Positions 20,081-63,904 of a stretch of DNA of 64,000 bases are shown in pieces (within the stretch, counting starts at the first letter, position 1; every line of letters begins with the position of its first letter). The stretch lies in NCBI RefSeq assembly GCF_022846255.1, contig NZ_AP025682.1. One strand, given 5' to 3'. Made by a program: the position numbers and the translations under genes. The DNA is from Escherichia coli. Lineage in GTDB: Bacteria; Pseudomonadota; Gammaproteobacteria; Enterobacterales; Enterobacteriaceae. The notes beneath the pieces were generated by a model. That model ran no database searches. It saw nothing but the letters and a program-made list of their open reading frames with translations, and was not told where the DNA came from.

Positions 20081-20095
20081 TACATGTTGTAGCAA

Positions 20096-21871: not shown

Positions 21872-21880
21872 CCTTCCTGA

Positions 21881-21917: not shown

Positions 21918-21919
21918 CA

Positions 21920-23500: not shown

Positions 23501-23531
23501 TCACCAAAATGGATAGGGGATGATTTAACGA

Positions 23532-24290: not shown

Positions 24291-24335
24291 GGCTGGCGGG
24301 ATACTTTTTACTATCAACGATAAGGTCAGGCTGAA

Positions 24336-27081: not shown

Positions 27082-27110
27082 AAATTCAAAGGATTGAGGG
27101 CGTTAGTGAG

Positions 27111-29257: not shown

Positions 29258-29288
29258 ACCCGCCGTGGCGCAACACCACGGCGGGTTC
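29257..29288. terminator. Bidirectional terminator hairpin between convergent permease and lipid operons
   Basis: 12-bp perfect stem aacccgccgtgg / ccacggcgggtt with 8-nt loop. Confidence 0.55.
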
Positions 29289-29291
29289 ACA

Positions 29292-30464
29292 TTACTGCTT
29301 CTGAGTAGCAAATGCCTGAATGATGGCATCGATTTGCTCACGACTGTGGGCAGCGTTTACGCTACAGCGCAGCAGCGTGATGCCAGCAGGCGCGGCAGGT
29401 GGCAGGATAAGATTCACATAAACGCCCAGCGAAATAAGCTCGCGCCAGATGCGTAAACCTTCCTCTTTCGAACCGATTATTACTGGCACTACCGGGCTAA
29501 TATGTGAACTTAACTCGTAACCCAGTTTTTGCAGACCGTCATACAGATGGTTGGCGTTATCCATCAGCTTTTGCCGCAGCTCTGGTTGTGAGGCAATGGT
29601 TCTTAACGACGAGCGCACGGTCGCAATGCAGGACGGAGAAGGAGAGGCGGTAAAAATATACGGGCGGCTGCCGTAGCGCAGCACTTCCATCGCTTCCGAA
29701 CCGACAGCAAAACCGCCAATCGAGGCCAGACTTTTACTGAAGGTGCCGACGATAATATCCACGTCGTCTTCAACGCCAACGGCTTCAACCAGTCCGCGCC
29801 CCGTAGCGCCTAACACGCCAAACGAATGTGCTTCATCGACAATCAAATAACCACCGAGACGACGTTTGATATCAACAATTTCTGCCAGCGGCGCAACGTC
29901 ACCGAGCATACTGTAGATGCCTTCAACGATAATAATCGCCTCTTTCGCCCGTTCACCGAGGCGGACCATGCGCCGTTCCAGATCGTTGACGTCATTATGG
30001 CGGAAACGAATAATCTCCGCGCCGCCGAGAGAACAGGCGTCATAAATACTGGCGTGGCTGTCGGCATCCAGTAACACCACGGCGTTATGGTCGGCAAGTG
30101 CGCTGATGACACCTAAATTAGCGGTATAACCGGTTGAAAAAACGATAGCGGTAGGGCGATTGAAAAACTCGGCAATCTCTTTCTCTAACGCCAGATGCGG
30201 CGCATAACTGCCGTTTGCCATACGAGAACCGGTGGTGCCGGTGCCTTGGGCCGCTAACGCTGCCTGACCTTCGCGGATAGCATCATGATTAAAGGTTAAA
30301 CCGAGATAATTATTGGTCCCGGCCAGAATCACTTTTTTATTGCCGATCCGGCCTTCGGTGGCGGAATATACTTCATCAATACAGGTGCCAAATGGTGTTA
30401 ACCCGTTGTCACTAAATTGCAGGCGCTCGCCAGCAAGGCGCGCATATTTATCGTATAGCCCCAT
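29292..30464 (-). CDS. PLP-dependent alpha-oxoamine synthase family acyltransferase (serine palmitoyltransferase / 8-amino-7-oxononanoate synthase-like), 390 aa
   Basis: PLP-lysine motif GTFSKSLAS and DEAHSFG; class-II aminotransferase fold inferred from translation. Confidence 0.8.
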   Translation of the reverse strand: MGLYDKYARLAGERLQFSDNGLTPFGTCIDEVYSATEGRIGNKKVILAGTNNYLGLTFNHDAIREGQAALAAQGTGTTGSRMANGSYAPHLALEKEIAEFFNRPTAIVFSTGYTANLGVISALADHNAVVLLDADSHASIYDACSLGGAEIIRFRHNDVNDLERRMVRLGERAKEAIIIVEGIYSMLGDVAPLAEIVDIKRRLGGYLIVDEAHSFGVLGATGRGLVEAVGVEDDVDIIVGTFSKSLASIGGFAVGSEAMEVLRYGSRPYIFTASPSPSCIATVRSSLRTIASQPELRQKLMDNANHLYDGLQKLGYELSSHISPVVPVIIGSKEEGLRIWRELISLGVYVNLILPPAAPAGITLLRCSVNAAHSREQIDAIIQAFATQKQ

Positions 30465-30712
30465 TATTTATTCTCCAGCCATGGAAGTAGAGTTTCCATT
30501 AATTGCGCAGGGGTTTTGACATCCAGCAGAATATTAATAGGAATGGAAATATCGAATCTGTCTTCCAGCATCATTAAGAGATCCATCACTTTGATCGACT
30601 CCAGGCCAAGATCGTTGACGAGATCGCTGTCGGGCTTAATTTCCACACCGTTTTCGACCAAATCCTGTAAACAGGAAAGGATGTAATCCATTACTATTTC
30701 ACGATTTACCAT
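30464..30712 (-). CDS. Acyl carrier protein, 82 aa
   Basis: Phosphopantetheine-attachment motif DLGLESIKVMDL; small acidic protein; stop overlaps next start. Confidence 0.8.
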   Translation of the reverse strand: MVNREIVMDYILSCLQDLVENGVEIKPDSDLVNDLGLESIKVMDLLMMLEDRFDISIPINILLDVKTPAQLMETLLPWLENK

Positions 30713-30743
30713 AGAAACGTTAACACACCTTTAAACAAGACAA

Positions 30744-31658
30744 TCAAAATAGCCCGTTGCGTAATGCGTGTTCCAGGCTAATCCCGGGAAACCAATTAAT
30801 ATCTTCAGAAATACGGTTATTACTTGCCGACCAGTCGGCATGAGTTAATTCACGGATTTTCGAACGAGTCAGCATCGGTTCTTTACCCGCCAGACGGCTC
30901 AACGCGGTACTGATATCCGCAAGGCAGGTGAGTAGCGGCAGAGGAATACCGACCATCCGCACGGAACCACAGCGGACATCGGCAACAAGCTGTTGGACAC
31001 GTTGCCAGTCATAGCCTCCGGCGACGCCATCGCATAATTCATAGGTTTGCGTCTGTACAGTTTCGGCGCTTAACCACTGACCCACTGCTTGCGCAAAATC
31101 GGTGACGTGAAGAAAAGAGAGCAGTGTCTCTGGCGTGCCAAGTCGTGGCAGCAGACCGCGCAGCATCCAGTCAAACAGCGGTTTTAACTCTTTATCGCCG
31201 GGACCATACACGGCTGTCGGGCGAAAAACGCCCAACGTAATTTCGTCAGCCATTGCAGTCAGCCGTTGTTCGGCGACGTGTTTGGAATTTGCGTACCAGG
31301 AGAGTTCGGGATGGCGCGCCGCCAGCGAAGAGATAAACAGAAAACGTTGGCAAAAGCCGCTCTCTTTTGCCGCTTGCATCAGGCGCAGGCTGCCGTCAAC
31401 GTTGCAGCGGGTAAAAATCTCTTCTTTGTGCCCGCGCACTTGCCCGGCGCAATGGACCACCGCGCTGGCTCCGGCAACCAGTTCGCTAAGCGAATGTGTA
31501 TCTTCCAGCGAACCGCGCACCCAAGTGAGATTATCATTGACGTGAGCGCGGGCAGTACGCGTCAATGCGCGAACGTGAAAGCCGCGGGCGAGCAGGTTAT
31601 CAATAATATATTTACCGATAAACCCGGTAGCGCCCGTCACCGCGACAGTTTGATTCAT
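30744..31658 (-). CDS. NAD(P)-dependent epimerase/dehydratase-family reductase (extended SDR), 304 aa
   Basis: ORF-track 374 aa trimmed to MNQTVAVTGATGFIGKY (Rossmann GxxGxxG); ATG overlaps upstream stop (ATGA). Confidence 0.78.
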   Translation of the reverse strand: MNQTVAVTGATGFIGKYIIDNLLARGFHVRALTRTARAHVNDNLTWVRGSLEDTHSLSELVAGASAVVHCAGQVRGHKEEIFTRCNVDGSLRLMQAAKESGFCQRFLFISSLAARHPELSWYANSKHVAEQRLTAMADEITLGVFRPTAVYGPGDKELKPLFDWMLRGLLPRLGTPETLLSFLHVTDFAQAVGQWLSAETVQTQTYELCDGVAGGYDWQRVQQLVADVRCGSVRMVGIPLPLLTCLADISTALSRLAGKEPMLTRSKIRELTHADWSASNNRISEDINWFPGISLEHALRNGLF

Positions 31659-33379
31659 GCCAGGGATTCCTGCACATGAAGACTGGCAGCATAAGCCTTC
31701 TGATAACGTTTTTTCGCTTCCGCACGGGCAGGCTTGCCGGAGGATGTTCGGGGAATACTGTGGGGCGGCAACAGATCGATATCCGCGGTAACGCCAAATT
31801 CGCTTTGGATCCGAGCTGCCAGCGCGTGGATAAGCTGCCCGCGACGTTCTTCGTCGCTGATCCGACACTGGATCTGCAAAATGATTTTTTCCTGGGCGGT
31901 AACAAAAGCAATCGCATCGCCAGAATGAATTTCCGGCTCCTGTTCCGCAATGTATTCAATATCCTGCGGCCAGATATTACGGCCACGAATAATAATCAGA
32001 TCTTTAATGCGTCCGGTGACATACAGATAACCGTCCAGCAGATAACCAAGGTCTCCGGTGTCTAACCAGCCCGTCGCGGCAATCTCGTCTTGCGAAACCT
32101 GGTCGCCAAAGTACCCGCTCATCAGGCTGGGGCCGGAGATGCAAATATGGCCTACCACACGTTCCGCGACAGGTATATCTGCTTCATTGCGGATTTCAAT
32201 GCCATGTTCCGGCAACGCTTTACCGCAGTTGACGAAAGTCGATACGGCGCGTGTTTCAGCACCCGGCGCGACGGCTTTACCCTGGTATTCGAGGATGTCG
32301 CGATCCACTTCGTTAACCACAACCCCGCAGGCTTCATCAGAGAAGCTGACAGCCAGCGCATTTTCTGCCAGTCCGTAGCACGGCATGAAAGTTTTATCGT
32401 CAAAGTTAACCTGACGGAAACATTCAGCGAATTGATGGAGTTGTTCTGCGGATATGGGTTCTGCGCCAATACCAGCGACGCGCCAGCAGGAAAGATCCAG
32501 TTCAGCGAGATCTTTTTCATTCACGCGGCGCTGGCACAATTCATAGCCAAACGGCGGTGCAACGGAAACGGTGCCACGATTTTTACTGATCAATTTAAGC
32601 CATTGCAGAGGACGCATGGCAAAATCCTGAGTGCGCAAATAATCTACTGAAAGCTGCGTGGCGACGGGGGTCAGGAGAAAGCCGACCAGTCCCATATCAT
32701 GGTAGAAAGGCAGCCAGGAGACGCAGCGGTCGCCAGGGCGTAATTTAATCCCATCGTGGCTTATAGCACGTAGATTAGCCATCACTTCGTGATGGGTGAT
32801 AATGACGCCACGGGGAAAACGGGTGCTGCCGGAGGTGTACTGGAGGTAGGCGATATCGTTTGGAACTGGACGCTGGAGCACAACATCGGCTTCCGGTAAT
32901 GCCTTAAACCAGGCGTGGCTTAAAACATGTAATTCGGGGTTGTTGTTATGCGTCGCGGCATTGACCAGTGGCAACCACTCATCACCAGTGATAATGGCTG
33001 CGGGCTGGCAACTTGCCAGTAAACCCTGCAGTTTGGCGCTCCAGGAATCCCGCTGACCTACGCCCATTGGAATCGCCAACGGGACGGCGACTAAGCCGGC
33101 ATACTGGCAGGCAAAAAAAGCCTCTACAAACCCGCTACTCGTTTCGGCAATCAGCGCCACGCGATCGCCTTTTTTCAGGTTCAGCGATAACAACCTTTTC
33201 GCACCAGCTTCGGCACGCGCTTTTAACGTCTGATATTCCAGTTGATCTTCAAGTTGGCAACGTCTGTCATAAAAATTCATTCCGGCGCTACTCAGAGCGG
33301 CGTAGTCCAAAGCATCAACCAGCGTTGGAAAATCGGCATAGCGCATAGGTAGGGAATGCGTAAAGATTTTATTAGACAT
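31655..33379 (-). CDS. Fatty-acyl-AMP ligase / acyl-ACP synthetase-like adenylating enzyme, about 574 aa
   Basis: AMP-binding motifs YTSGSTRFPRG and GRIKDLIIIRGRNIWPQDIE; start set at ATG 33379 (alternative TTG 33406). Confidence 0.8.
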   Translation of the reverse strand: MSNKIFTHSLPMRYADFPTLVDALDYAALSSAGMNFYDRRCQLEDQLEYQTLKARAEAGAKRLLSLNLKKGDRVALIAETSSGFVEAFFACQYAGLVAVPLAIPMGVGQRDSWSAKLQGLLASCQPAAIITGDEWLPLVNAATHNNNPELHVLSHAWFKALPEADVVLQRPVPNDIAYLQYTSGSTRFPRGVIITHHEVMANLRAISHDGIKLRPGDRCVSWLPFYHDMGLVGFLLTPVATQLSVDYLRTQDFAMRPLQWLKLISKNRGTVSVAPPFGYELCQRRVNEKDLAELDLSCWRVAGIGAEPISAEQLHQFAECFRQVNFDDKTFMPCYGLAENALAVSFSDEACGVVVNEVDRDILEYQGKAVAPGAETRAVSTFVNCGKALPEHGIEIRNEADIPVAERVVGHICISGPSLMSGYFGDQVSQDEIAATGWLDTGDLGYLLDGYLYVTGRIKDLIIIRGRNIWPQDIEYIAEQEPEIHSGDAIAFVTAQEKIILQIQCRISDEERRGQLIHALAARIQSEFGVTADIDLLPPHSIPRTSSGKPARAEAKKRYQKAYAASLHVQESLA

Positions 33380-33749
33380 ATACACCACGAAAAAATTGGA
33401 TATCAAAAATAAAATGACAATAATGCGGTGGATTATATAGGCATAAAAGATAAATGAGATAGTATTTTCATCGGTGTGAAAATGAACATTGATTTAAATA
33501 ATAAGTTTGGCTTTTTTGTTTTTATTGTGAATGATATTTAATTTGTGAATATATTAAGAAGGAGCCTTGTCCGGTCGCCTTAAATCGACAAGAGGCATTG
33601 TGGCGCTTCTGTGTAGTCTTTGACCTTATCGTAATCATTAATAAATACTATTTATTCTTTGTTTGTATTCATTGGGTTGATTATTAAGATGCCGTTCGTT
33701 GCTGTTGCAACCTGTTTTTCACCGTTAATTATTTGTTATCCACAGAGAT

Positions 33750-44821: not shown

Positions 44822-47800
44822 ATGAATAAGAAATTTAAATATAAGAAATCGCTTTTAGCGGCTATTTTGAGTGCAACCCTGTTAGCCGGTTGTGATGGCG
44901 GTGGCTCCGGATCTTCCTCCGATACGCCGCCTGTAGATTCTGGAACAGGGTCTTTGCCGGAAGTGAAACCTGATCCAACACCAAACCCGGAGCCGACGCC
45001 TGAGCCAACGCCGGACCCAGAACCTACGCCGGAACCGACACCTGATCCTGAGCCAACACCAGAACCGGAGCCAGAACCTGTTCCTACGAAAACGGGTTAT
45101 CTGACCCTGGGCGGAAGCCAGCGGATAACTGGTGCTACCTGTAATGGTGAATCCAGCGATGGCTTTACCTTTACGCCAGGCGACAAAGTCACCTGTGTGG
45201 CAGGGAACAACACGACAATTGCTACCTTCGACACCCAGTCAGAAGCTGCGCGTAGCCTGCGTGCGGTTGAAAAAGTGTCGTTTAGTCTTGAGGACGCGCA
45301 AGAACTGGCGGCTTCCGATGACAAGAAAAGCAATGCGGTTTCGCTGGTAACGTCCAGTAACAGCTGTCCGGCGAATACAGAACAGGTTTGCCTGACGTTC
45401 TCCTCAGTGATCGAGAGTAAACGTTTCGACTCGCTGTATAAGCAAATCGATCTGGCACCGGAAGAGTTCAAAAAGCTGGTCAATGAAGAGGTGGAAAACA
45501 ATGCTGCGACTGATAAAGCGCCGTCCACCCATACCTCAACGGTAGTGCCAGTCACGACTGAGGGAACAAAACCGGATCTGAACGCGTCCTTCGTGTCGGC
45601 TAACGCGGAACAGTTTTATCAGTATCAACCCACTGAAATCATTCTTTCCGAAGGCCAACTGGTGGATAGCCTGGGGAACGGTGTTGCTGGCGTTGACTAC
45701 TACACCAATTCAGGCCGTGGCGTAACTGACGAAAACGGTAAATTCTCCTTTAGCTGGGGCGAAACCATCTCCTTTGGTATCGATACCTTTGAACTGGGCT
45801 CAGTACGTGGCAATAAGTCGACCATTGCGCTGACTGAATTGGGTGATGAAGTTCGCGGGGCAAATATCGATCAGCTCATTCATCGTTATTCGACGACTGG
45901 TCAAAATAATACCCGTGTTGTTCCGGACGATGTACGCAAGGTCTTTGCCGAATATCCCAACGTGATCAACGAGATAATCAATCTTTCGTTATCCAACGGT
46001 GCGACGCTGGATGAAGGCGATCAAAACGTTGTGCTGCCTAACGAATTTATCGAGCAGTTTAAGACGGGTCAGGCCAAAGAGATCGATACCGCGATTTGTG
46101 CGAAAACCAACGGTTGCAACGAGGCTCGCTGGTTCTCGCTGACAACGCGCAATGTTAATGACGGCCAGATTCAGGGCGTTATTAACAAGCTGTGGGGCGT
46201 GGATACGAACTATCAGTCTGTCAGCAAGTTCCACGTCTTCCATGACTCTACCAACTTCTATGGCAGCACCGGTAACGCGCGCGGTCAGGCGGTGGTGAAT
46301 ATCTCCAACGCGGCATTCCCGATTCTGATGGCGCGTAATGATAAAAACTACTGGCTGGCCTTCGGTGAAAAACGCGCCTGGGATAAAAATGAGCTGGCGT
46401 ACATTACGGAAGCGCCTTCCATTGTGCAGCCAGAGAACGTTACGCGCGATACCGCGACCTTCAACCTGCCGTTTATTTCGCTGGGGCAAGTCGGCGACGG
46501 CAAACTGATGGTTATCGGTAACCCGCACTACAACAGCATTTTGCGTTGCCCTAATGGTTACAGTTGGAACGGGGGCGTTAATAAAGACGGGCAGTGTACG
46601 CTCAGCGGTGATTCTGATGACATGAAGCACTTTATGCAGAACGTACTGCGCTATCTGTCCGACGATAAATGGACGCCGGACGCGAAAGCCAGCATGACCG
46701 TAGGCACCAACCTGGATACCGTCTATTTCAAACGTCATGGTCAGGTCACTGGGAACAGTGCTCCATTTGGCTTCCATCCGGATTTTGCAGGTATCTCTGT
46801 TAAACATTTGACCAGCTATGGTGATCTAAATCCGGAAGAAGTTCCGTTGCTGATCCTCAACGGCTTTGAATATGTGACTCAGTGGTCTGGCGATCCCTAT
46901 GCTGTGCCTCTGCGTGCAGATACCAGCAAACCGAAGCTGACTCAGCAGGATGTGACTGATCTGATCGCCTATCTGAACAAAGGCGGTTCGGTGCTGATCA
47001 TGGAAAACGTGATGAGCAATCTTAAGGAAGAGAGCGCGTCCAGTTTTGTGCGTCTGCTGGATGCCGCGGGTCTGTCAATGGCTCTGAACAAATCGGTGGT
47101 GAACAACGATCCGCAGGGTTATCCGAACCGCGTGCGCCAGCGCCGAGCGACTGGCATTTGGGTTTATGAACGTTATCCGGTTGTGGAAGGTGCGCTGCCG
47201 TACACCATTAATTCTGAGACAGGCGAAGTTACCTGGAAATATCAGATTGATAACAAACCTGATAAGAAACCGAAGCTGGAAGTTGCCAGTTGGCAAGAAG
47301 AGGTTGATGGTGAACAAGTAACTCAATACGCGTTTATTGATGAAGCCGACTACAAAACGCCTGAGTTGCTGGCTGCGGCGAAGAAGAGAATTCTGGATGC
47401 GTTCCCTGGGCTGGAAGAGTGTAAGGATCCTGACTATCACTATGAGGTCAACTGCCTCGAATACCGTCCAGGCACGGGGGTTCCTGTAACGCCAGAGAAT
47501 AATACTGGCATGTTTGTTCCACGCTATACGCAACTGAATCTTGACGCCGACACTGCGAAAGCGATGGTGCAGGCTGCAGATTTAGGCACCAACATTCAGC
47601 GCCTGTATCAACATGAGCTTTATTTCCGTACTAAAGGCAGTAAAGGCGAACGTCTGAACAGCGTCGATCTCGAACGTCTGTACCAGAACATGTCGGTCTG
47701 GCTGTGGAACGATACGAAATATCGTTACGAAGAGGGCAAGGAAGATGAGCTGGGCTTTAAAACGTTCACCGAGTTCCTGAACTGCTACGCCAATGATGCC

Positions 47801-53878: not shown

Positions 53879-55371
53879 TGGTGCCTGTAGCACAGGAAAC
53901 CACCGCTAACACCGTGCGTCTGCCCTACAGTTTCAGCCGTCGGTTTAGCCTGGTGGCATGGTGCGAAGCGTCGCTGGAGATCCTCCATGTTCATCCGTTG
54001 TCGCTCTCTGTTTTGCAGGAGCTGCAGCGGGGGCTGAACGCGTCTTTTACGCTGAGGCAAATCGACGAGGCCGAATTTGAACAGCGGCTGAATGCGGTCT
54101 GGCAGCGGGACTCTTCCGAGGCCCGCCAGCTGATGGAAGATCTCGGTTCTGCTGAGGACTTTTTTACTCTCGCAGAAGAACTACCGGAAACGGAAGATCT
54201 GCTGGAAAGTGACGACGATGCGCCAATCATCAAACTGATCAACGCCATGTTGGCAGAGGCGATTAAAGAAGGCGCTTCGGATATCCACATCGAGACGTTT
54301 GAAAAGAGTCTGGTGATCCGTTTTCGTGTTGACGGCACACTACATGAAATGCTGCGTCCGGGGCGCAAACTGGCCTCGCTGCTGGTATCGCGTATTAAGG
54401 TGATGGCACGGCTGGATATCGCCGAAAAACGCGTACCGCAGGATGGGCGCATTGCGCTGCTGCTGGGCGGTCGGGCGATTGACGTGCGTGTCTCCACCAT
54501 GCCTTCCGCCTGGGGGGAACGGGTGGTGCTGCGACTGCTGGACAAAAACCAGGCTCGCCTGACGCTGGAGCGTCTGGGTTTAAGTCTCGAACTGACTGCG
54601 CAGTTGCGCCAGCTGTTACACAAACCGCACGGCATTTTTCTGGTGACGGGGCCGACCGGTTCCGGCAAAAGCACCACGCTGTACGCTGGATTGCAGGAGC
54701 TGAACAACCACTCGCGTAACATTCTCACGGTTGAAGACCCTATCGAATACATGATTGAAGGGATCGGTCAGACGCAGGTTAACACCCGCGTCGGCATGAC
54801 CTTCGCCCGTGGCCTGCGCGCGATTTTGCGTCAGGACCCGGATGTGGTGATGGTCGGTGAAATCCGCGATACCGAAACCGCAGAAATCGCTGTTCAGGCT
54901 TCACTGACCGGACACCTGGTACTTTCCACGCTGCATACCAACACGGCGGTGGGGGCGATCACGCGTTTGCAGGATATGGGCGTTGAGCCTTTCCTGCTCT
55001 CTTCCAGTCTGACGGGCGTGATGGCGCAGCGACTGGTTCGCACGCTGTGTCCCGATTGCCGCCAGTCCGCGCCTGCCACCGACGAAGAAAAACGCCTGCT
55101 GGGGATTACCGATGCGCGAACCGTCACGCTGTACCATCCGCAGGGCTGTCCCGCCTGTAATCACAAAGGTTTTCGCGGACGTACTGCCATCCATGAGCTG
55201 ATCGTGGTGGACGCCACATTACGTGATTTGATCCACCGTCAGGCCGGGGAACTGGAGCTGGAACGTTATGTCCGGCAACACTCTGCGGGTATCCGCAGCA
55301 ACGGCATTGAGAAAGTGCTCGCCGGAGAAACCTCTCTCGATGAAGTTCTGCGGGTAACCATGGAGGCGTAA
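53878..55371 (+). CDS. gspE: Type II secretion system ATPase, 497 aa
   Basis: Walker [10 protein letters not shown]; tetracysteine CPDC...CPAC motif. Confidence 0.93.
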
Positions 55372-56594
55372 TGGCACTGTTTTACTATCAGGCGCTGGAG
55401 CGTAATGGTCGCAAAACCAAAGGAATGATTGAGGCGGATTCCGCGCGTCATGCCCGTCAATTGTTGCGTGGTAAAGAGCTTATCCCCGTGCACATTGAAG
55501 CCCGGCTGAATGCTTCGACAGGGGGAATGTTGCAGCGTCGGTGGCATGCACATCGTCGCGTGGCGGCGGCAGATTTGGCGCTGTTCACACGCCAACTGGC
55601 AACGCTGGTGCAGGCAGCAATGCCGCTGGAAACCTGCTTACAGGCGGTCAGTGAGCAAAGTGAAAAACTGCATGTAAAAAGCCTCGGAATGGCGCTGCGC
55701 AGCCGGATTCAGGAAGGTTATACCCTGTCGGACAGCCTGCGCGAACATCCCCGCGTCTTTGACTCCCTGTTTTGTTCGATGGTCGCTGCCGGAGAAAAAT
55801 CCGGACATCTCGACGTGGTGCTCAATCGCCTGGCGGATTACACCGAACAGCGGCAGCGTCTGAAATCACGCCTGCTGCAGGCCATGCTCTACCCGCTGGT
55901 ACTGCTGGTGGTGGCAACGGGCGTGGTCACTATTTTGCTGACGGCAGTAGTGCCGAAAATTATCGAACAGTTTGATCATCTCGGACACGCGCTGCCTGCC
56001 TCCACCCGAATGCTCATCGCCATGAGCGACACGTTACAGACCAGCGGCGTGTACTGGCTGGCGGGTTTGCTGGGGCTTCTGGTGCTGGGGCAACGGCTAC
56101 TCAAAAATCCTGCGATGCGCCTGCGCTGGGATAAAACCTTGCTGCGTTTGCCCGTGACGGGGCGTGTTGCGCGCGGACTGAATACGGCGCGTTTTTCCCG
56201 CACATTAAGCATCCTCACCGCCAGCAGTGTTCCGCTGCTGGAAGGCATTCAGACCGCCGCCGCCGTGTCGGCAAATCGTTATGTCGAGCAACAACTGCTG
56301 CTGGCGGCAGATCGCGTCCGCGAAGGAAGCAGCCTGCGCGCCGCGCTGGCGGAGTTGCGCCTGTTCCCGCCGATGATGCTGTACATGATCGCCTCCGGCG
56401 AACAGAGCGGTGAACTGGAAACCATGCTTGAACAGGCCGCGGTCAACCAGGAACGGGAATTTGATACCCAGGTGGGGCTGGCGTTAGGGCTGTTTGAGCC
56501 GGCGCTGGTGGTGATGATGGCGGGCGTGGTGCTGTTTATCGTCATCGCCATCCTCGAACCGATGCTGCAACTGAACAATATGGTTGGAATGTAA
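55371..56594 (+). CDS. gspF: Type II secretion system inner-membrane platform protein, 407 aa
   Basis: Duplicated GspF domain architecture, three TM segments. Confidence 0.92.
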   Translation: MALFYYQALERNGRKTKGMIEADSARHARQLLRGKELIPVHIEARLNASTGGMLQRRWHAHRRVAAADLALFTRQLATLVQAAMPLETCLQAVSEQSEKLHVKSLGMALRSRIQEGYTLSDSLREHPRVFDSLFCSMVAAGEKSGHLDVVLNRLADYTEQRQRLKSRLLQAMLYPLVLLVVATGVVTILLTAVVPKIIEQFDHLGHALPASTRMLIAMSDTLQTSGVYWLAGLLGLLVLGQRLLKNPAMRLRWDKTLLRLPVTGRVARGLNTARFSRTLSILTASSVPLLEGIQTAAAVSANRYVEQQLLLAADRVREGSSLRAALAELRLFPPMMLYMIASGEQSGELETMLEQAAVNQEREFDTQVGLALGLFEPALVVMMAGVVLFIVIAILEPMLQLNNMVGM

Positions 56595-56610
56595 TTTACG
56601 GAGTTATCAC

Positions 56611-57066
56611 ATGAATTCGTTATCCCGCACACAAAAACCACGGGCAGGTTTTACCCTGCTGGAAGTGATGGTGGTGATTGTTATTCTTGGCGTCCTGGCA
56701 AGTCTGGTGGTGCCTAACCTGTTGGGCAACAAAGAGAAAGCCGATCGGCAAAAAGCCATCAGCGATATCGTGGCGCTGGAGAATGCGCTGGATATGTACC
56801 GACTGGATAACGGGCGTTATCCGACTACCGAACAGGGGCTGGAGGCGCTGATCCAGCAACCGGCCAATATGGCGGATTCCCGTAACTACCGTACCGGTGG
56901 ATACATTAAACGACTGCCAAAGGATCCGTGGGGCAATGATTATCAGTATCTCAGCCCGGGTGAAAAAGGGCTGTTTGATGTTTATACCCTGGGAGCAGAT
57001 GGTCAGGAAAACGGGGAGGGCGCTGGCGCAGATATCGGTAACTGGAATTTGCAGGAGTTTCAGTAA
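56611..57066 (+). CDS. gspG: Type II secretion major pseudopilin, 151 aa
   Basis: Prepilin leader ending G|FTLLEVMVV; ORF-track start trimmed to MNSLSR with GGAG RBS. Confidence 0.9.
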   Translation: MNSLSRTQKPRAGFTLLEVMVVIVILGVLASLVVPNLLGNKEKADRQKAISDIVALENALDMYRLDNGRYPTTEQGLEALIQQPANMADSRNYRTGGYIKRLPKDPWGNDYQYLSPGEKGLFDVYTLGADGQENGEGAGADIGNWNLQEFQ

Positions 57067-57069
57067 TCA

Positions 57070-57633
57070 GTGCCTGAACGCGGATTCACACTTCTGGAAA
57101 TCATGCTGGTGATTTTCCTTATCGGCCTTGCCAGTGCGGGCGTGGTACAGACGTTTGCGACCGCTTCAGAGCCGCCTGCGAAAAAAGCGGCGCAGGATTT
57201 TCTGACTCGCTTTGCGCAGTTTAAGGACAGGGCAGTGATCGAAGGGCAAACACTCGGTGTGCTAATCGACCCGCCAGGTTACCAGTTTATGCAGCGTCGT
57301 CACGGGCAATGGTTGCCCGTTTCTGCGACCCGGTTATCGGCACAGGTTACGGTGCCGAAACAGGTGCAGATGCTGTTACAACCCGGAAGTGATATCTGGC
57401 AGAAGGAATATGCGCTGGAGCTGCAGCGTCGTCGCCTGACGCTGCACGATATTGAACTGGAGCTGCAAAAAGAGGCGAAAAAGAAGACACCGCAGATCCG
57501 TTTTTCGCCTTTTGAACCCGCCACGCCGTTTACACTGCGTTTTTACGCGTCGGCACAAAACGCGTGTTGGGCGGTAAAGCTGGCGCACGATGGCGTGTTA
57601 TCCCTCAATCAATGTGATGAGGGGATGCCATGA
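57070..57633 (+). CDS. gspH: Type II secretion minor pseudopilin H, 187 aa
   Basis: GTG start; prepilin motif RGFTLLEIMLV. Confidence 0.88.
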   Translation: MPERGFTLLEIMLVIFLIGLASAGVVQTFATASEPPAKKAAQDFLTRFAQFKDRAVIEGQTLGVLIDPPGYQFMQRRHGQWLPVSATRLSAQVTVPKQVQMLLQPGSDIWQKEYALELQRRRLTLHDIELELQKEAKKKTPQIRFSPFEPATPFTLRFYASAQNACWAVKLAHDGVLSLNQCDEGMP

Positions 57634-58001
57634 AGCGTGGATTTACCTTGCTGGAAGTAATGCTCGCGCTGGCGATTTTTGCGTTGGCCGCCATGGCGGT
57701 GTTACAGATCGCCAGCGGCGCGCTGAGTAATCAGCAAATCCTTGAAGAAAAAACGGTAGCGGGCTGGGTAGCTGAAAACCAGACCGCACTGCTTTACCTG
57801 ATGACCCGTGAACAACGAGCGGTCAGGCACCAGGGCGAGAGTGATATGGCAGGAAGCCGCTGGTACTGGCGAACCACACCGCTGAGTACAGGCAACGCGC
57901 TGCTCCAGGCAGTGGATATTGAAGTCAGCCGTCACGAAGACTTTTCGTCGGTGATTCAGTCACGACGCGCCTGGTTTAGCGCCGTGGGAGGCCAACAGTG
58001 A
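57630..58001 (+). CDS. gspI: Type II secretion minor pseudopilin I, 123 aa
   Basis: Prepilin motif RGFTLLEVMLALAIF. Confidence 0.88.
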   Translation: MKRGFTLLEVMLALAIFALAAMAVLQIASGALSNQQILEEKTVAGWVAENQTALLYLMTREQRAVRHQGESDMAGSRWYWRTTPLSTGNALLQAVDIEVSRHEDFSSVIQSRRAWFSAVGGQQ

Positions 58002-58603
58002 GAAGGACTTGCGCTGGTTTCACGTTACTGGAAATGCTGGTGGCAATTGCCATTTTTGCCTCACTGGCACTGATGGCGCAGCAGGTGACAAACGGCGTTA
58101 CACGCGTGAATAGCGCCGTCGCCGGACACGATCAAAAACTAAACCTCATGCAGCAAACGATGAGTTTTTTGAACCACGATCTGACACAAATGATGCCGCG
58201 TCCGGTAAGAGGCGATCAGGGCCAGCGTGAACCAGCGTTACTGGCGGGCGCTGGCGTGCTGGCGTCTGAGAGTGAAGGGATGCGTTTTGTGCGCGGCGGC
58301 GTGGTTAATCCGTTGATGCGTCTGCCGCGCAGTAATCTGCTCACCGTCGGTTACCGCATTCATGGTGGTTATCTCGAACGGTTAGCCTGGCCACTGACCG
58401 ATGCGGCAGGCAGCGTGAAGCCAACAACGCAAAAATTAATCCCGGCGGATTCGCTCCGTTTGCAGTTCTACGACGGCACGCGCTGGCAGGAGAGCTGGTC
58501 ATCAGTGCAGGCGATTCCTGTGGCAGTACGCATAACCCTGCATTCGCCGCAATGGGGCGAAATTGAACGCATCTGGTTGTTACGCGGGCCGCAATTATCA
58601 TGA
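57998..58603 (+). CDS. gspJ: Type II secretion minor pseudopilin J, 201 aa
   Basis: Prepilin motif AGFTLLEMLVAIAIF. Confidence 0.88.
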   Translation: MRRTCAGFTLLEMLVAIAIFASLALMAQQVTNGVTRVNSAVAGHDQKLNLMQQTMSFLNHDLTQMMPRPVRGDQGQREPALLAGAGVLASESEGMRFVRGGVVNPLMRLPRSNLLTVGYRIHGGYLERLAWPLTDAAGSVKPTTQKLIPADSLRLQFYDGTRWQESWSSVQAIPVAVRITLHSPQWGEIERIWLLRGPQLS

Positions 58604-59577
58604 TCACCTCACCACCAAAACGCGGAATGGCACTGGTCGTGGTGCTGGTATTGCTGGCGGTTATGATGCTGGTGACCATCACGCTTTCCGGGCGGATGCA
58701 GCAACAACTTGGGCGAACGCGCAGCCAGCAGGAGTACCAGCAGGCGCTGTGGTACAGCGCCAGTGCGGAAAGCCTGGCGTTGAGCGCACTCAGTCTGAGC
58801 CTGAAAAATGAAAAGCGCGTGCATCTGGCGCAGCCGTGGGCTTCCGGCCCTCGTTTTTTCCCACTGCCGCAGGGGCAAATTGCCGTCACCCTGCGTGACG
58901 CCCAGGCCTGCTTTAACCTGAATGCCCTCGCTCAGCCGACAACGGCGTCGCGTCCTATCGCGGTACAACAACTGATTGCCCTGATCTCGCGCCTGGATGT
59001 GCCTGCTTATCGGGCCGAACTGATAGCCGAAAGCCTGTGGGAGTTTATTGACGAGGACCGCAGCGTGCAGACGCGTCTGGGGCGTGAAGACAGCGAGTAT
59101 CTCGCCCGCTCGGTGCCGTTCTACGCCGCTAATCAACCGCTGGCTGATATCAGCGAAATGCGCGTGGTACAGGGAATGGACGCCGGGCTTTATCAAAAAC
59201 TGAAACCGTTGGTCTGTGCGCTGCCGATGGCCCGCCAGCAAATCAACATCAATACATTAGATGTCACGCAAAGTGTGATTCTTGAGGCGCTGTTTGACCC
59301 GTGGTTAAGCCCTGTTCAGGCGCGGGCGTTATTACAACAACGTCCGGCGAAGGGCTGGGAAGATGTCGATCAGTTTCTTGCACAGCCGCTACTCGCAGAC
59401 GTCGATGAGCGTACTAAAAAACAGCTAAAAACCGTCCTGAGCGTGGACAGCAATTACTTCTGGCTGCGTTCAGATATCACCGTGAATGAGATTGAACTGA
59501 CGATGAACTCGTTAATTGTCCGCATGGGCCCACAACACTTTTCTGTTCTCTGGCATCAGACAGGAGAAAGTGAGTGA
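58600..59577 (+). CDS. gspK: Type II secretion minor pseudopilin K, 325 aa
   Basis: N-terminal TM plus size/position typical of GspK. Confidence 0.88.
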   Translation: MITSPPKRGMALVVVLVLLAVMMLVTITLSGRMQQQLGRTRSQQEYQQALWYSASAESLALSALSLSLKNEKRVHLAQPWASGPRFFPLPQGQIAVTLRDAQACFNLNALAQPTTASRPIAVQQLIALISRLDVPAYRAELIAESLWEFIDEDRSVQTRLGREDSEYLARSVPFYAANQPLADISEMRVVQGMDAGLYQKLKPLVCALPMARQQININTLDVTQSVILEALFDPWLSPVQARALLQQRPAKGWEDVDQFLAQPLLADVDERTKKQLKTVLSVDSNYFWLRSDITVNEIELTMNSLIVRMGPQHFSVLWHQTGESE

Positions 59578-60752
59578 GTTCCATCCTTGAGATTTTTTTC
59601 CCGCTTTGCGCCTCCGACACCATCCGCTGGCAGCGCCGTACCGCCGACGTGGAGTGCGGCATCTGGCCTGACGTTGCTGACGAACGTCTCCAGCAATGGC
59701 TGCAAACTGATGCGATTCGACTCTACATTCCCGGCGAATGGATCAGCGTCTGGCAGGTTGAACTGCCTGATGTGCCCCGCAAGCAGATACCGACGATTCT
59801 GCCCGCCTTGCTGGAAGAAGAGCTGAACCAGGATATCGATGAACTGCATTTTGCCCCGTTGAAAATCGACCAGCAACTGGCAACCGTAGCTGTGATTCAC
59901 CAGCAGCATATGCGCAACATTGCGCAGTGGTTGCAGGCAAACGGCATCACCCGCGCTATCGTCGCGCCGGACTGGATGTCCATTCCTTGTGGGTTTATGG
60001 CTGGCGATGCGCAACGGGTTATCTGCCGCATCGATGAATGCCGGGGATGGAGCGCCGGGCGAACGCTGGCTCCGGTCATGTTCCGCGCACAGCTCAATGA
60101 GCAGGATTTACCGCTTTCACTAACCGTGGTCGGCATTGCACCGGAAGAACTGTCTGCATGGGCTGGTGCAGACGCCGAACGCCTGACCGTTACGGCTCTG
60201 CCCGCCATTACCACTTATGGCGAACCGGAAGGGAACCTGTTAACAGGGCCGTGGCAGCCTCGTGTCAGCTACCGAAAACAGTGGGCGCGCTGGCGGGTGA
60301 TGATTCTGCCGATATTGCTGATTCTGGTTGCGCTGGTAGTGGAACGGGGCGTGACGTTATGGAGCGTCAGCGAACAGGTGGCGCAAAGCCGCACCCAGGC
60401 GGAGAAACAGTTCTTAACGCTATTCCCGGAGCAGAAGCGGATTGTGAATTTACGCTCTCAGGTGACGATGGCGCTGAAAAAATATCGCCCACAGGCCGAC
60501 GATACCCGGCTGCTCGCCGAGTTGTCAGCGATAGCCAGCACCCTGAAATCAGCGTCACTTTCCGACATCGAAATGCGTGGTTTCACCTTTGATCAAAAAC
60601 GCCAGACGCTCCACCTTCAGTTGCGGGCAGCAAACTTTGCCAGTTTCGACAAACTGCGTAGCGCACTGGCGGCAGATTATGTTGTGCAACAGGACGCATT
60701 ACAGAAAGAGGGTGATGCGGTTTCCGGCGGCGTAACGTTGCGGAGGAAATAA
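59574..60752 (+). CDS. gspL: Type II secretion inner-membrane protein L, 392 aa
   Basis: GTG start overlapping gspK stop; single central TM; operon position. Confidence 0.85.
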   Translation: MSSILEIFFPLCASDTIRWQRRTADVECGIWPDVADERLQQWLQTDAIRLYIPGEWISVWQVELPDVPRKQIPTILPALLEEELNQDIDELHFAPLKIDQQLATVAVIHQQHMRNIAQWLQANGITRAIVAPDWMSIPCGFMAGDAQRVICRIDECRGWSAGRTLAPVMFRAQLNEQDLPLSLTVVGIAPEELSAWAGADAERLTVTALPAITTYGEPEGNLLTGPWQPRVSYRKQWARWRVMILPILLILVALVVERGVTLWSVSEQVAQSRTQAEKQFLTLFPEQKRIVNLRSQVTMALKKYRPQADDTRLLAELSAIASTLKSASLSDIEMRGFTFDQKRQTLHLQLRAANFASFDKLRSALAADYVVQQDALQKEGDAVSGGVTLRRK

Positions 60753-60753
60753 C

Positions 60754-61290
60754 ATGTTACGCGATAAATTTATTCACTATTTTCAGCAATGGCGTGAACG
60801 CCAGTTAAGCCGTGGCGAACACTGGCTAGCACAGCACCTGGCGGGGCGTTCGCCGCGTGAAAAAGGCATGTTACTGGCAGCGGTGGTGTTCCTGTTTAGC
60901 GTCGGATATTACGTCCTCATCTGGCAGCCGTTGAGCGAACGGATAGAACAACAGGAGACGATGTTGCAACAGCTGGTGGCGATGAACGCGCGACTGAAGA
61001 GCGCCGCGCCGGATATAATTGCAGCGCGAAAATCCGCCACGACAACGCCAGCACAGGTATCGCGGGTCATCAGTGACAGCGCTTCCGCGCACTCAGTGGT
61101 CATCAAGCGGATAGCCGAGCGCGGGGAGAATATTCAGGTCTGGATAGATCCGGTGGTGTTTAATGACCTGCTGAACTGGTTAAACGCGCTGGATGAAAAG
61201 TATGCGCTGCGGGTGACACAAATTGATGTCAGCGCAGGTGAGAAGCCTGGGATGGTGAATGTGCAGCGGCTGGAGTTTGGACGGGGGTAG
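60754..61290 (+). CDS. gspM: Type II secretion inner-membrane protein M, 178 aa
   Basis: Small bitopic protein following gspL; also known as yghD. Confidence 0.85.
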   Translation: MLRDKFIHYFQQWRERQLSRGEHWLAQHLAGRSPREKGMLLAAVVFLFSVGYYVLIWQPLSERIEQQETMLQQLVAMNARLKSAAPDIIAARKSATTTPAQVSRVISDSASAHSVVIKRIAERGENIQVWIDPVVFNDLLNWLNALDEKYALRVTQIDVSAGEKPGMVNVQRLEFGRG

Positions 61291-62060
61291 GTATTGCCAT
61301 TTCCTTAACCCCACCTGATAACCCTTAGCCCAAGGGTGAGTGCGGAACTGTCAAACCCGCTCACCGGGCTGAGTTCCGATGTAGCAAGATTTATCTCCCT
61401 CCAGAGCACCACGGAATGTTCGACAATACTGTAGGAATTCGTTTTTCACCATGTAGCCTTCGTTAATCTACACCTTTCTAAGACTGTAAAGATGCTTAAG
61501 TGTTTTGACACATTATGATTATTAATAGTTGTAATAAATCATTGAGTAACAATTGATAGGTCAAAACATATAGGATAATTCTTATGTGATCTGTATTTTG
61601 TGTAGCCTGGAAATTAGTAAAATTACTGGAGATAATCAGAAAGGGAATTTCAAATAAGCATAATAATTTCCAGGGAAACTATTCGTCGATTTTAAGAAAT
61701 GTCTGCTCAGGTATATCTACTGAGGGATGGTGTTGGTTGTAACGCTGGTTAAAATAAACACACAAAATAATCAGGATGTATATTTTAATCGACGAAAATA
61801 ATTACCTTCGGGATTATTGATGCGACTTAAATAACACCATTTAAACGTGATATAAATCACAAATATGGCTGTGAAGAGGGTGCTGTAGATATAAATAAGA
61901 AGTACATGAGTGAATTTTAAATAGGAAAATAGTTTCTCGCTAAACAATTTATTGGTAATCAATCGCATGCGTTCTGGTTTGAGACAGATTGCAGGTGTTG
62001 CTACGCATAAAATTCATAGGCGGTATTATAATCAAGTAGTTAACAGTAATAGTAAAAAAT

Positions 62061-62076
62061 AATTTCTTGCGAAATT
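62061..62076. repeat. Palindrome AATTTC-N4-GAAATT, copy 1, in kpsM leader
   Basis: aatttcttgcgaaatt read directly. Confidence 0.8.
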
Positions 62077-62176
62077 AGCGGCCCATTTTGAATAAGTGTG
62101 TTCCGGAGTAATCCAGAACGCATGCTGCTTTACGTCTTTTTCAAGCCATATTGGTTAAGCAAAAAGAGGTAGAAAT

Positions 62177-62192
62177 AATTTCCTGAGAAATT
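62177..62192. repeat. Palindrome AATTTC-N4-GAAATT, copy 2, in kpsM leader
   Basis: aatttcctgagaaatt read directly; preceded by gaaat as in copy 3. Confidence 0.8.
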
Positions 62193-62311
62193 AACTCTAC
62201 ATTCTGAAACGGCCAGTTTTCTGAAATTACCAGAAGACCGAATACATTCATGCCTGAAGAATGGATTAGAAGAAACGAGACGGAAATAGATCTATTTATC
62301 CCTGCGGAAAT

Positions 62312-62327
62312 AATTTCTGATGAAATT
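62312..62327. repeat. Palindrome AATTTC-N4-GAAATT, copy 3, in kpsM leader
   Basis: aatttctgatgaaatt read directly. Confidence 0.8.
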
Positions 62328-62422
62328 GTTTTCGGCTATTAAAAAGGTCAAACCGGCTGAGTGAATTTTATCCAGTTACAAATAAGCATTACCTCCAGTG
62401 TATTGGTAGCTGTTAAGCCAAG

Positions 62423-62434
62423 GGCGGTAGCGTA
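62423..62434 (+). promoter_or_regulatory. ops element (RfaH recruitment site, JUMPstart core) in kpsM leader
   Basis: GGCGGTAGCGTA, containing the 8-bp ops core GGCGGTAG, 32 bp upstream of kpsM ATG. Confidence 0.8.
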
Positions 62435-62462
62435 CCTGAAGAGATTAGGATCACATCATCAA

Positions 62463-63239
62463 ATGGCAAGAAGTGGATTTGAAGTCCAGAAAGTCACCGT
62501 AGAGGCATTATTTCTACGAGAAATACGAACACGCTTTGGTAAGTTCCGTCTGGGATATTTGTGGGCGATTCTCGAACCCTCTGCGCATTTGCTGATACTG
62601 TTGGGCATTTTTGGTTACATTATGCACCGCACGATGCCAGACATCTCATTCCCGGTGTTTTTACTTAATGGCCTGATTCCCTTTTTTATCTTTAGCAGTA
62701 TCAGCAATCGTTCTGTAGGTGCTATTGAAGCGAATCAGGGGCTGTTTAATTATCGACCAGTAAAACCCATCGATACGATCATTGCGCGTGCATTGCTTGA
62801 GACACTGATTTACGTTGCTGTTTATATATTGCTTATGCTTATCGTCTGGATGGCAGGCGAATATTTCGAAATAACAAACTTTTTACAACTTGTGCTTACC
62901 TGGAGTTTGTTAATCATTCTTTCATGTGGCGTTGGCTTAATATTCATGGTCGTTGGTAAAACCTTCCCTGAAATGCAAAAGGTCCTGCCGATACTGCTTA
63001 AGCCGCTGTATTTCATCTCCTGCATCATGTTCCCTCTACACTCGATTCCGAAGCAATACTGGTCATATCTACTCTGGAACCCATTAGTGCATGTCGTAGA
63101 GTTAAGCCGCGAGGCAGTTATGCCTGGCTATATCAGCGAAGGCGTGAGTCTGAACTACCTTGCAATGTTCACTCTGGTCACCCTGTTCATCGGTCTGGCG
63201 TTATACCGAACGCGTGAAGAGGCAATGCTGACATCATGA
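62463..63239 (+). CDS. kpsM: Capsule polysaccharide export ABC transporter permease, 258 aa
   Basis: ORF-track 292 aa trimmed to MARSGFEVQKVTVEALFLREIRTRFGK (ABC-2 permease signature region); AT-rich codon usage. Confidence 0.9.
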   Translation: MARSGFEVQKVTVEALFLREIRTRFGKFRLGYLWAILEPSAHLLILLGIFGYIMHRTMPDISFPVFLLNGLIPFFIFSSISNRSVGAIEANQGLFNYRPVKPIDTIIARALLETLIYVAVYILLMLIVWMAGEYFEITNFLQLVLTWSLLIILSCGVGLIFMVVGKTFPEMQKVLPILLKPLYFISCIMFPLHSIPKQYWSYLLWNPLVHVVELSREAVMPGYISEGVSLNYLAMFTLVTLFIGLALYRTREEAMLTS

Positions 63240-63904
63240 TTAAGATTGAGAATTTGACGAAGTCATATCGCACGCCAACGGGTCGACATTATGTCTTTAA
63301 GGATTTAAACATCGAAATCCCTTCAGGAAAAAGTGTCGCCTTTATTGGTCGTAATGGTGCGGGTAAATCAACGTTACTGAGAATGATTGGTGGCATTGAC
63401 CGCCCCGATAGCGGAAAGATCATCACCAATAAAACGATATCATGGCCAGTCGGCCTTGCAGGTGGATTTCAGGGAAGTTTAACCGGACGCGAAAATGTAA
63501 AATTTGTCGCGAGGTTATACGCGAAGCAAGAAGAACTGAAAGAGAAAATTGAGTTTGTTGAAGAATTTGCCGAACTCGGTAAGTACTTCGATATGCCGAT
63601 TAAGACTTACTCATCTGGTATGCGATCGCGTTTAGGCTTTGGTTTAAGCATGGCATTTAAGTTTGATTATTATATCGTCGATGAAGTAACCGCAGTCGGT
63701 GATGCCAGGTTTAAAGAAAAATGCGCTCAATTGTTTAAAGAAAGGCATAAAGAATCTAGCTTTTTAATGGTTTCACATAGTTTGAATTCATTGAAAGAGT
63801 TTTGTGATGTGGCCATTGTGTTTAAAGATGATAATGCAGTTAGTTTTCATGAGGATGTTCAGGAGGGGATAGAGGAGTATCGTGTAAAACAAACCTGCAA
63901 ATAA
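63236..63904 (+). CDS. kpsT: Capsule polysaccharide export ABC transporter ATP-binding protein, 222 aa
   Basis: Walker A GRNGAGKST, ABC signature YSSGMRSRL, Walker B YYIVDE; overlaps kpsM stop. Confidence 0.92.
   Translation: MIKIENLTKSYRTPTGRHYVFKDLNIEIPSGKSVAFIGRNGAGKSTLLRMIGGIDRPDSGKIITNKTISWPVGLAGGFQGSLTGRENVKFVARLYAKQEELKEKIEFVEEFAELGKYFDMPIKTYSSGMRSRLGFGLSMAFKFDYYIVDEVTAVGDARFKEKCAQLFKERHKESSFLMVSHSLNSLKEFCDVAIVFKDDNAVSFHEDVQEGIEEYRVKQTCK

Follow-up and report, generated by a model that had tools for sequence, protein, structure and literature searches.

The locus described here raises the question of whether this Escherichia coli carries a complete type II secretion system (T2SS) together with its substrate SslE, as a preliminary description made from the sequence had claimed, or a cluster that has decayed in one of its genes. 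It occupies positions 44822-61290 of the window (the whole stretch of 64,000 nucleotides that was analysed), starting at the ATG of sslE and ending with the stop codon of yghD, and comprises 14 co-directional genes on the + strand: sslE, pppA, yghG (gspS-beta), gspC to gspL and yghD (gspM). The T2SS-beta/SslE system found at these positions is already known and well studied. Our reading, to which we assign a probability of roughly 90%, is that the locus is the chromosomal E. coli T2SS-beta (sslE-pppA-yghG-gspCDEFGHIJKLM) in its intact ancestral form, and that this, including the proposed pathway and a recombinant sslE allele, is its best explanation.

Genes were called from the listing of open reading frames and re-annotated against the RefSeq-annotated E. 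coli strain 1428. All 14 were translated and compared with their RefSeq counterparts, and none of them contains a frameshift or an internal stop; frameshifts in gsp genes, which the preliminary description had named beforehand as the outcome that would speak against it, were looked for on re-annotation and none appeared. A frameshift or pseudogene reading of the cluster is ruled out by this lack of any defect relative to the RefSeq counterparts. Each of the 13 T2SS genes is exactly as long as its reference counterpart, at 96.1-100% amino acid identity to strain 1428, and SslE is 1524 aa long versus 1521 aa in that strain (5 gap columns, 92.7% identity). Judged by model scores and RefSeq lengths, each of the components named in the description is present and intact within the coordinates given. 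The T2SS lies directly downstream of sslE, as had been proposed (the order is sslE, then pppA, yghG and gspC-M, an earlier title having put the T2SS first), and the tight linkage with overlapping stop and start codons is also real, six junctions being overlapped, either by 1 nt (D/E and E/F) or by 4 nt (H/I, I/J, J/K and K/L).

SslE, GspC-L and YghD were identified with curated NCBIfam models of the equivalog or exception type, whose cut-offs they exceed, and PppA and YghG with Pfam. The outer-membrane secretin GspD (51818..53878; GTG start, 686 aa, 99.7% identical to RefSeq) scores 552.8 bits against TIGR02517 (cut-off 351) and 1381.9 bits, over aa 41-686, against chain A of PDB 5zdh, a solved complex of secretin with pilotin which we take to be the GspD-beta/GspS-beta complex from ETEC. 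Its outer-membrane pilotin lipoprotein, YghG (gspS-beta or AspS-type; 50401..50811; 136 aa, 98.5% identical to RefSeq), matches chain P of the same entry (E = 8e-69, 232.2 bits) and Pfam T2SSS_2 (61 bits), and has the lipobox LSGC. GspC (50829..51788; 319 aa), the inner-membrane component linking platform to secretin, aligns over residues 1-319 of 319 with NF007242 (734.8 bits, cut-off 561); in Pfam it matches T2SSC and, weakly, PDZ, and its TTG start and length are those found in RefSeq. The secretion ATPase GspE (53878..55371; 497 aa, 100% amino acid identity to RefSeq) scores 706.2 bits with TIGR02533 (cut-off 630) and displays a Walker A motif (GPTGSGKS at 258), a Walker B motif (VVMVGE at 323) and a zinc-binding tetracysteine motif (CPDC...CPAC at 391).

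The remaining inner-membrane platform proteins are GspF (55371..56594; TIGR02120, 490.7 bits; 407 aa, 99.8% identical), GspL, the partner of GspE and GspM (59574..60752; TIGR01709, 180.4 bits, with Pfam T2SSL and GspL_C; 392 aa, 97.4% identical), and YghD, or gspM-beta (60754..61290; NF007274, 409.4 bits with a cut-off of 352, and Pfam T2SSM, 159.5 bits; 178 aa, 96.1% identical). Among the pseudopilins, the major one is GspG (56611..57066; TIGR01710, 191.8 bits; 151 aa, 100% identical), with the GFTLLE motif at aa 13, and the same motif is seen in the minor pseudopilins GspH (57070..57633; TIGR01708, 184.7 bits; 187 aa), GspI (57630..58001; TIGR01707, 89.6 bits; 123 aa) and GspJ (57998..58603; TIGR01711, 174.3 bits; 201 aa), all three 100% identical to RefSeq. 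GspK (58600..59577; NF037980, 285.6 bits; 325 aa, 100% identical), the minor pseudopilin of the pseudopilus tip, has GMALVV at its N-terminus, lacking the Glu of the motif in GspG-J. Finally, the prepilin peptidase PppA (GspO-type; 49526..50335; 269 aa, 98.1% identical to RefSeq PppA) matches Pfam A24_N_bact (117.6 bits) and Peptidase_A24 (86.9 bits) and has two CxxC motifs and GMGD. The parts of a T2SS are all found, namely secretin, ATPase, platform (GspC/F/L/M, full length), pseudopilins G-K and a dedicated prepilin peptidase.

The substrate gene sslE (yghJ; 44822..49396, ATG start) encodes an M60-family zinc metalloprotease that is a lipoprotein. The protein covers profile positions 1-1519 of 1519 of NF037973 (3482 bits, cut-off 3000), falls within the SslE/AcfD subfamily of lipoprotein metalloproteases (NF037974, 1960 bits) and contains the Pfam domains DUF4092, M60-like_N (43.7 bits) and Peptidase_M60 (128 bits); the solved structure PDB 23px spans it at full length (3247.7 bits). 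Its signal peptide, MNKKFKYKKSLLAAILSATLLAGC, has the lipobox LAGC with Cys24 and an Asp at position +2. The HEVGH motif that had been claimed was found at aa 1308, where it opens a zinc site (HEVGHNAAE...E, that is, HEXXH-X(8,24)-E inside the Peptidase_M60 domain). This motif is conserved in all SslE alleles analysed, and the mucinase activity shown for other alleles depends on it (PMC4014459). SslE has also been given a role in biofilm maturation, with fibres formed at acidic pH by a pH-triggered amyloid-like aggregation (PMC8881592). It is conceivable, if doubtful, that building the biofilm matrix rather than degrading mucin is the main task of the system, with SslE acting as amyloid-like, DNA-binding fibres at acidic pH; the aggregation and maturation data just cited point this way, as does the naming of YghJ as a putative amyloidogenic protein in the MG1655 record, but the zinc site and the M60 domain, on which mucinase activity depends, are fully conserved here, and the two roles are not mutually exclusive.

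From published work on the family, a pathway for the intact T2SS-beta can be proposed. SslE would be made with a signal peptide of the Sec type and receive its acyl group at Cys24, and the Asp at +2 would, by the general rules of lipoprotein sorting, keep it off the Lol pathway. PppA would cleave and methylate the pseudopilins GspG-K, and YghG would escort GspD, the secretin, to its place in the outer membrane. The inner-membrane platform would consist of GspC, F, L and M, with GspE hydrolysing ATP, and folded SslE would be pushed through GspD to the surface and the medium by a pseudopilus of GspG with GspH, I, J and K at its tip. There its M60 domain, with the HEVGH...E zinc site, would degrade mucins, and SslE may also support biofilm maturation. 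In E. coli W, SslE is secreted via T2SS-beta and both PppA and gspC-M are required (PMC3707838).

In contrast to the T2SS genes, the sslE allele is where this locus differs from the known E. coli T2SS-beta. The 571 informative sites form blocks in an A/B/A pattern, giving a three-part mosaic in which each segment is 99.9-100% identical to alleles of different genomes, and the breakpoints lie near domain boundaries. The leader and NT1 come from one lineage, NT2-NT3 from a rare one (only 19 records at ≥99% among 5426 genomes), and the M60 module from one that occurs in ETEC-type strains. The three segments were found together in none of 5426 complete E. coli genomes, the best full-length DNA match being 95.3%. 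That the allele arose by recombination among three pre-existing allele lineages is well supported by the sequence. A truly novel, divergent sslE can be dismissed, since all three segments have matches of 99.9-100% and NCBI already lists the identical protein as WP_244331658.1 (UniRef100 entry, n=4). The divergence of sslE also explains why the 18-kb query that included it gave only 96.8% identity in a first search, the gsp genes themselves reaching 98.9%. An origin in an Escherichia other than E. coli, considered on the basis of that value, is ruled out by the 98.9% of the gsp genes, the 98.7% of the upstream core and the exact proteins, which are E. coli in NCBI.

A subtle defect, with secretion abolished despite intact frames, either by a missense substitution in one of the Gsp proteins or by the junctions of the chimeric SslE, seems very improbable. 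It would find some room in the missense differences from strain 1428, the closest annotated strain, in GspL (97.4% identity), YghD (96.1%), GspC (98.4%) and PppA (98.1%), that is 1.6-3.9%, in the new combination of SslE segments and in the decay seen in relatives, such as the frameshifted gspD of strain VTB97074v or the internal deletion of K-12. Furthermore, C-terminal fusions block SslE secretion (PMC3707838), and therefore changes in SslE are not always tolerated, which bears on the chimeric protein. However, the core proteins GspD, E, F, G, H, I, J and K are 99.7-100% identical to their RefSeq counterparts, and the catalytic and processing motifs are all found (lipoboxes, HEXXH...E, Walker A/B, prepilin GFTLLE and peptidase motifs). 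With its breakpoints close to domain borders, SslE should still fold properly, and the same SslE sequence is present in a UniRef100 entry with four members.

Transcription of the intact cluster is expected to start in the AT-rich glcA-sslE intergenic region (44339..44821, + strand; 483 bp, GC 0.31), the regulatory region that would hold the sslE promoter, with H-NS/StpA repression at low temperature and an increase by Fis at 37 C. A terminator-like hairpin of glcA is found at 44346-44376, and a 101-aa minus-strand ORF at 44366-44671 was treated as spurious because it has no Pfam match and is unannotated in the RefSeq strains. A simple scan found no strong sigma-70 consensus match upstream of sslE. 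In ETEC and UPEC, H-NS/StpA repress the sslE promoter and Fis activates it; the genes of the cluster form one transcribed operon, and SslE expression differs strongly among strains with the same locus (PMC5012682). One could then suppose that the cluster is intact but cryptic, with silencing by H-NS/StpA unrelieved and little or no SslE secreted under most conditions, comparable to the intact but silent T2SS-alpha of K-12. The low GC and the lack of a strong consensus promoter in the scan would fit, as would the strong repression of sslE by H-NS, seen at 22 C and, for strain EC958, at 37 C as well (PMC5012682), and the secretion by strain W only at 37 C in rich medium (LB) (PMC3707838). We regard this as unlikely, as the 14 ORFs are undisrupted, with six of their junctions overlapping in the manner of translational coupling, the regulatory region shares 97-100% identity with its counterpart in other strains (annotated strains 1428 and FDAARGOS_144), and strains that were tested express the system at 37 C (PMC3707838, PMC5012682). 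By homology, the present strain with its intact T2SS-beta would be expected to secrete and display on its surface, under temperature control, a mucinase and biofilm factor.

The spacer between sslE and pppA (49397..49525, + strand; GC 0.57; sequence GCCGGATAAGGCGCTCGCGCCGCATCCGGCA) contains a GC-rich palindrome of REP type, with the main hairpin at ~49401-49438. The fold reaches -52.6 kcal/mol (z = -2.75), and positions 49404-49446 give a weak Rfam match to a REP-derived naRNA4 (30.4 bits, below the gathering score). The hairpin may act as an mRNA stabiliser or a partial terminator. Apart from this sub-threshold match, the Rfam scan of the cluster gave only a chance match to mir-598.

The closest known system is the T2SS-beta of ETEC H10407, EPEC E2348/69, E. 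coli W and UPEC UTI89. Compared with strain 1428, where T2SS-beta is annotated, gene order, lengths of the T2SS genes, start codons, junction overlaps and adjacency to glcA are all alike; only the three-segment sslE allele departs from the known systems. The T2SS-alpha of E. coli (gspA-O, secreting the chitinase ChiA) is the same type of machine, with GspC-M and a prepilin peptidase, but it is found at another chromosomal locus, outside the window. Beta-specific models fit the proteins described here (NF007274 for YghD, NF007242 for GspC over its 319 residues, and GspS-beta in the RefSeq annotation), and GspD scores 1381.9 bits against 5zdh versus 545.4 bits against 5wq7, presumably the secretin of the K-12 alpha system. 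The Eps T2SS of Vibrio cholerae, with AcfD, is more distant, belonging to another genus and having much lower identity: YghG matches V. cholerae AspS (PDB 4ftf, E = 6.8e-06) and GspD scores 730.6 bits against the cryo-EM entry 5wq8, which we assume to be V. cholerae GspD. In contrast to Eps, the cluster in the window includes neither gspN nor gspAB, and the gene for its substrate is linked to those of the machine.

K-12 had been said to retain only fragments, and this agrees with MG1655, which keeps yghJ-pppA-yghG-yghF-yghE-yghD in the same place and orientation relative to glcA. Its sslE/yghJ, pppA, yghG, gspC (yghF) and yghD have 93-96% DNA identity to the window, but the part corresponding to 51792-59787, i.e., gspD-K and the first ~215 nt of gspL, is absent, gspL being kept from 59788 onward. 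An internal gspD-K deletion of K-12 has been reported (PMC3707838). The product name of YghJ in the MG1655 record is spelt putative "mayloidogenic" protein. Downstream of yghD the two also differ, with pheV following directly in MG1655 and the kps capsule region in the window.

The upstream neighbours are glcDEFGBA (glcA at 42656-44338) and the downstream ones kpsMT of the kps capsule locus, so that the cluster sits in the usual place of T2SS-beta, on the chromosome's pheV side and flanked by glcA and the kps capsule locus. T2SS-beta and the adjacent kps genes together suggest an ExPEC-like pheV region. The pppA-yghD stretch has 98.9% DNA identity to annotated strains, and at least 80% of it is present in 3214 of 5426 complete E. 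coli genomes (~59%). An intact T2SS-beta/SslE locus is therefore ordinary, and of the suggestion that it marks the strain, the carriage of an intact cluster stands, but it sets the strain apart very little.

The locus matters little beyond the description of the strain, where it helps annotation and gives a clue to host-associated traits: K-12 has lost the ancestral T2SS-beta/SslE system of colonisation and biofilm formation by deletion, and this strain has kept it intact. The recombinant sslE is a small but concrete case of whole domains being shuffled in an E. coli antigen that has been proposed for a broad-coverage vaccine, and is relevant to cataloguing the antigenic diversity of SslE. We consider it quite unlikely that the chimera reflects diversifying, immune-driven recombination of this surface-exposed antigen, with a putative change in antigenicity or mucin recognition that matters for vaccine coverage; if true, domain-wise shuffling would affect the coverage of an SslE vaccine.

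The T2SS-beta cluster and its substrate gene sslE lie in a region where, in the six-frame ORF list, + strand ORFs run unbroken from 44804 to 61290. Gene boundaries follow the RefSeq annotation of E. coli strain 1428, which was the closest match among complete genomes and to which all 14 genes, on the + strand, could be matched: sslE (44822–49396), pppA (49526–50335), yghG/gspS-beta (50401–50811), gspC (50829–51788, TTG start), gspD (51818–53878, GTG start), gspE (53878–55371), gspF (55371–56594), gspG (56611–57066), gspH (57070–57633), gspI (57630–58001), gspJ (57998–58603), gspK (58600–59577), gspL (59574–60752), and yghD/gspM (60754–61290). Every gene was translated by script and aligned to the strain 1428 protein, and no internal stops were found across the 14. 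The 13 secretion-machine genes do not differ in length from the reference, their proteins are 96.1–100% identical to those of strain 1428, and their start codons are those of the reference except in yghD (ATG here, GTG in strain 1428). SslE has 1524 residues versus 1521 and 92.7% identity. The D/E and E/F junctions overlap by 1 nt and the H/I, I/J, J/K, and K/L junctions by 4 nt each, the remaining gsp intergenic gaps being 1–29 nt. The preliminary description was therefore right about the coordinates, the genes listed, and the overlap of stop and start codons, and re-annotation revealed no frameshift in any gsp gene.

The components were recognized by family models, with SslE scoring 3482 bits (NCBIfam NF037973, cut-off 3000), GspC 734.8 (NF007242, cut-off 561), YghD 409.4 (NF007274, cut-off 352), and GspD, E, F, G, H, I, J, K, and L matching NCBIfam equivalogs, each above its own cut-off. 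PppA and YghG gave no match in the NCBIfam search; by Pfam they are a two-domain A24 prepilin peptidase and a T2SSS_2 pilotin, respectively. Motifs in the proteins are as follows: two CxxC and GMGD in PppA, an LSGC lipobox in YghG, Walker A (GPTGSGKS), Walker B (VVMVGE), and CxxC...CxxC in GspE, and the prepilin motif GFTLLE in GspG, H, I, and J, with GMALVV in GspK. SslE carries the zinc site HEVGH...E at residue 1308 and an LAGC lipobox (Cys24) with Asp at +2. This residue at +2 is a Lol-avoidance signal in other T2SS-secreted lipoproteins, and by analogy it would act as such in SslE. Full-length SslE matches the solved structure 23px (3247.7 bits), the GspD-beta/GspS-beta secretin–pilotin complex structure 5zdh is matched with 1381.9 and 232.2 bits, and NCBI already holds identical SslE (WP_244331658.1), PppA (WP_137501472.1), and YghD (WP_137501469.1) under those names. 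The locus is real and was correctly interpreted, and with its proteins in NCBI, solved structures, and a published system it is, as had been stated, known biology, down to atomic structures.

In K-12 MG1655 the order is yghJ-pppA-yghG-yghF-yghE-yghD, followed by pheV, and BLAST of both loci showed that it lacks 51792–59787, that is gspD to gspK and the first ~215 nt of gspL. An identical internal deletion has been described (PMC3707838), and the statement in the preliminary description that K-12 retains only fragments is confirmed. Among 5426 complete E. coli genomes, some part of pppA-yghD was matched in 4338, and 3214 (59%) carry ≥80% of it at a single place; the best identity is 98.9%. The closest complete RefSeq E. 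coli reach ~98.6–98.9% over core and gsp regions (20000–44000 and 49526–61290), and none in this set is near-identical to the source strain. VTB97074v, the genome closest to the upstream core, has a gspD annotated as a pseudogene with a frameshift (44753–46811 of its locus), whereas the copy here is intact; independent decay of T2SS-beta thus occurs in close relatives.

The single unusual feature of the locus is that sslE is a mosaic. For the 18-kb query as a whole the best genome match was 96.8%, low because of the divergence of sslE, whose best full-length match was 95.3%, in two pieces. When the region was aligned with those of strain 1428 (type A) and FDAARGOS_144 (type B), 571 sites were informative: nearly all were A-like at 44663–45472, nearly all B-like at 45511–48091 (runs of 117, 13, and 194 sites, broken by only 5), and mostly A-like at 48137–49470. 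When the segments were searched separately, 314 records reached ≥99% for the first, with strain BH100 among the matches at 99.9%, and 128 for the third, which several strains, among them O6:H16 M9682-C1 and ATCC 43886, carry at 100%. The second was matched at 100% in DETEC-S792 and belongs to a rare lineage, since only 19 records reach ≥99% versus 3259 at 80–90%. In the protein, identity to types A and B, respectively, is 99.6% and 85.7% for residues 1–230, 88.2% and 99.9% for residues 231–1090, and 97.9% and 90.1% for residues 1091–1524. The breakpoints (~residues 218–230 and ~1091–1106) fall near the published NT1/NT2 linker (residues 212–229, in a numbering that may be offset; PMC8881592) and the start of Pfam M60-like_N (residue 1085, the Pfam coordinate minus 6, as that run used a longer TTG-started ORF). 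As the gene has just two breakpoints, their position near domain borders may be accidental. Variation among SslE proteins (86–100% across two main clades) has been published (PMC4014459), so the mosaic is an instance of known diversity and not a new phenomenon.

Upstream of sslE are glcDEFGB and then glcA (42656–44338); the C0719 sRNA family (RF00117) has a full-length match between glcB and glcA, oriented against the direction of the glc genes (42356–42577, –; 295.8 bits, E = 3e-77). Further upstream, between yghS and yghO (~24300–33400, transferred from 17237–26281 of the VTB97074v locus with an offset of +7108), a cluster annotated in that strain as LPS biosynthesis protein, LptF/LptG-like permeases, serine palmitoyltransferase (spt), acyl carrier protein, NAD-dependent epimerase, and fatty acyl-AMP ligase resembles an island for lipid or sphingolipid-like biosynthesis. 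Immediately 3' of yghD comes an AT-rich spacer (1172 bp, GC 0.36), with a JUMPstart element (62396–62434, 58.5 bits), followed by kpsM (62463–63239, +, 258 aa; 189 against an NCBIfam cut-off of 300), and kpsT (63236–63904, +, 222 aa), so that a capsule export locus adjoins the T2SS. The best DNA identity of 61291–64000 among complete genomes is 96.7%, with any match in 1707 of 5426.

In other strains the cluster is reported to be an operon transcribed from the sslE promoter, repressed by H-NS and StpA at low temperature and activated by Fis at 37°C (PMC5012682). The region 5' of sslE (483 bp, GC 0.31, 97–100% identical to other strains) is compatible with this regulation; a consensus scan of it gave no strong sigma-70 promoter match. 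A 101-aa ORF within this AT-rich region (44366–44671, –) is probably spurious, as Pfam gives no match to it and the compared RefSeq strains lack it in their annotation. The sslE–pppA spacer (49397–49525, GC 0.57) holds a REP-type palindrome, which might stabilize sslE mRNA or lower read-through. This spacer, made up largely of such palindromes, differs in length among strains: it is 129 bp long both here and in strain 1428 but reaches 155 bp in FDAARGOS_144 and 163 bp in VTB97074v.

Secretion of SslE by E. coli W requires gspC-M, pppA, a temperature of 37°C, and rich medium (PMC3707838). The zinc motif is required for mucin degradation (PMC4014459), and SslE forms amyloid-like fibres at acidic pH in biofilm maturation (PMC8881592). 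Judging from these relatives, the locus would follow the family pathway, and its sequence suggests that T2SS-beta/SslE would be functional in the source strain.
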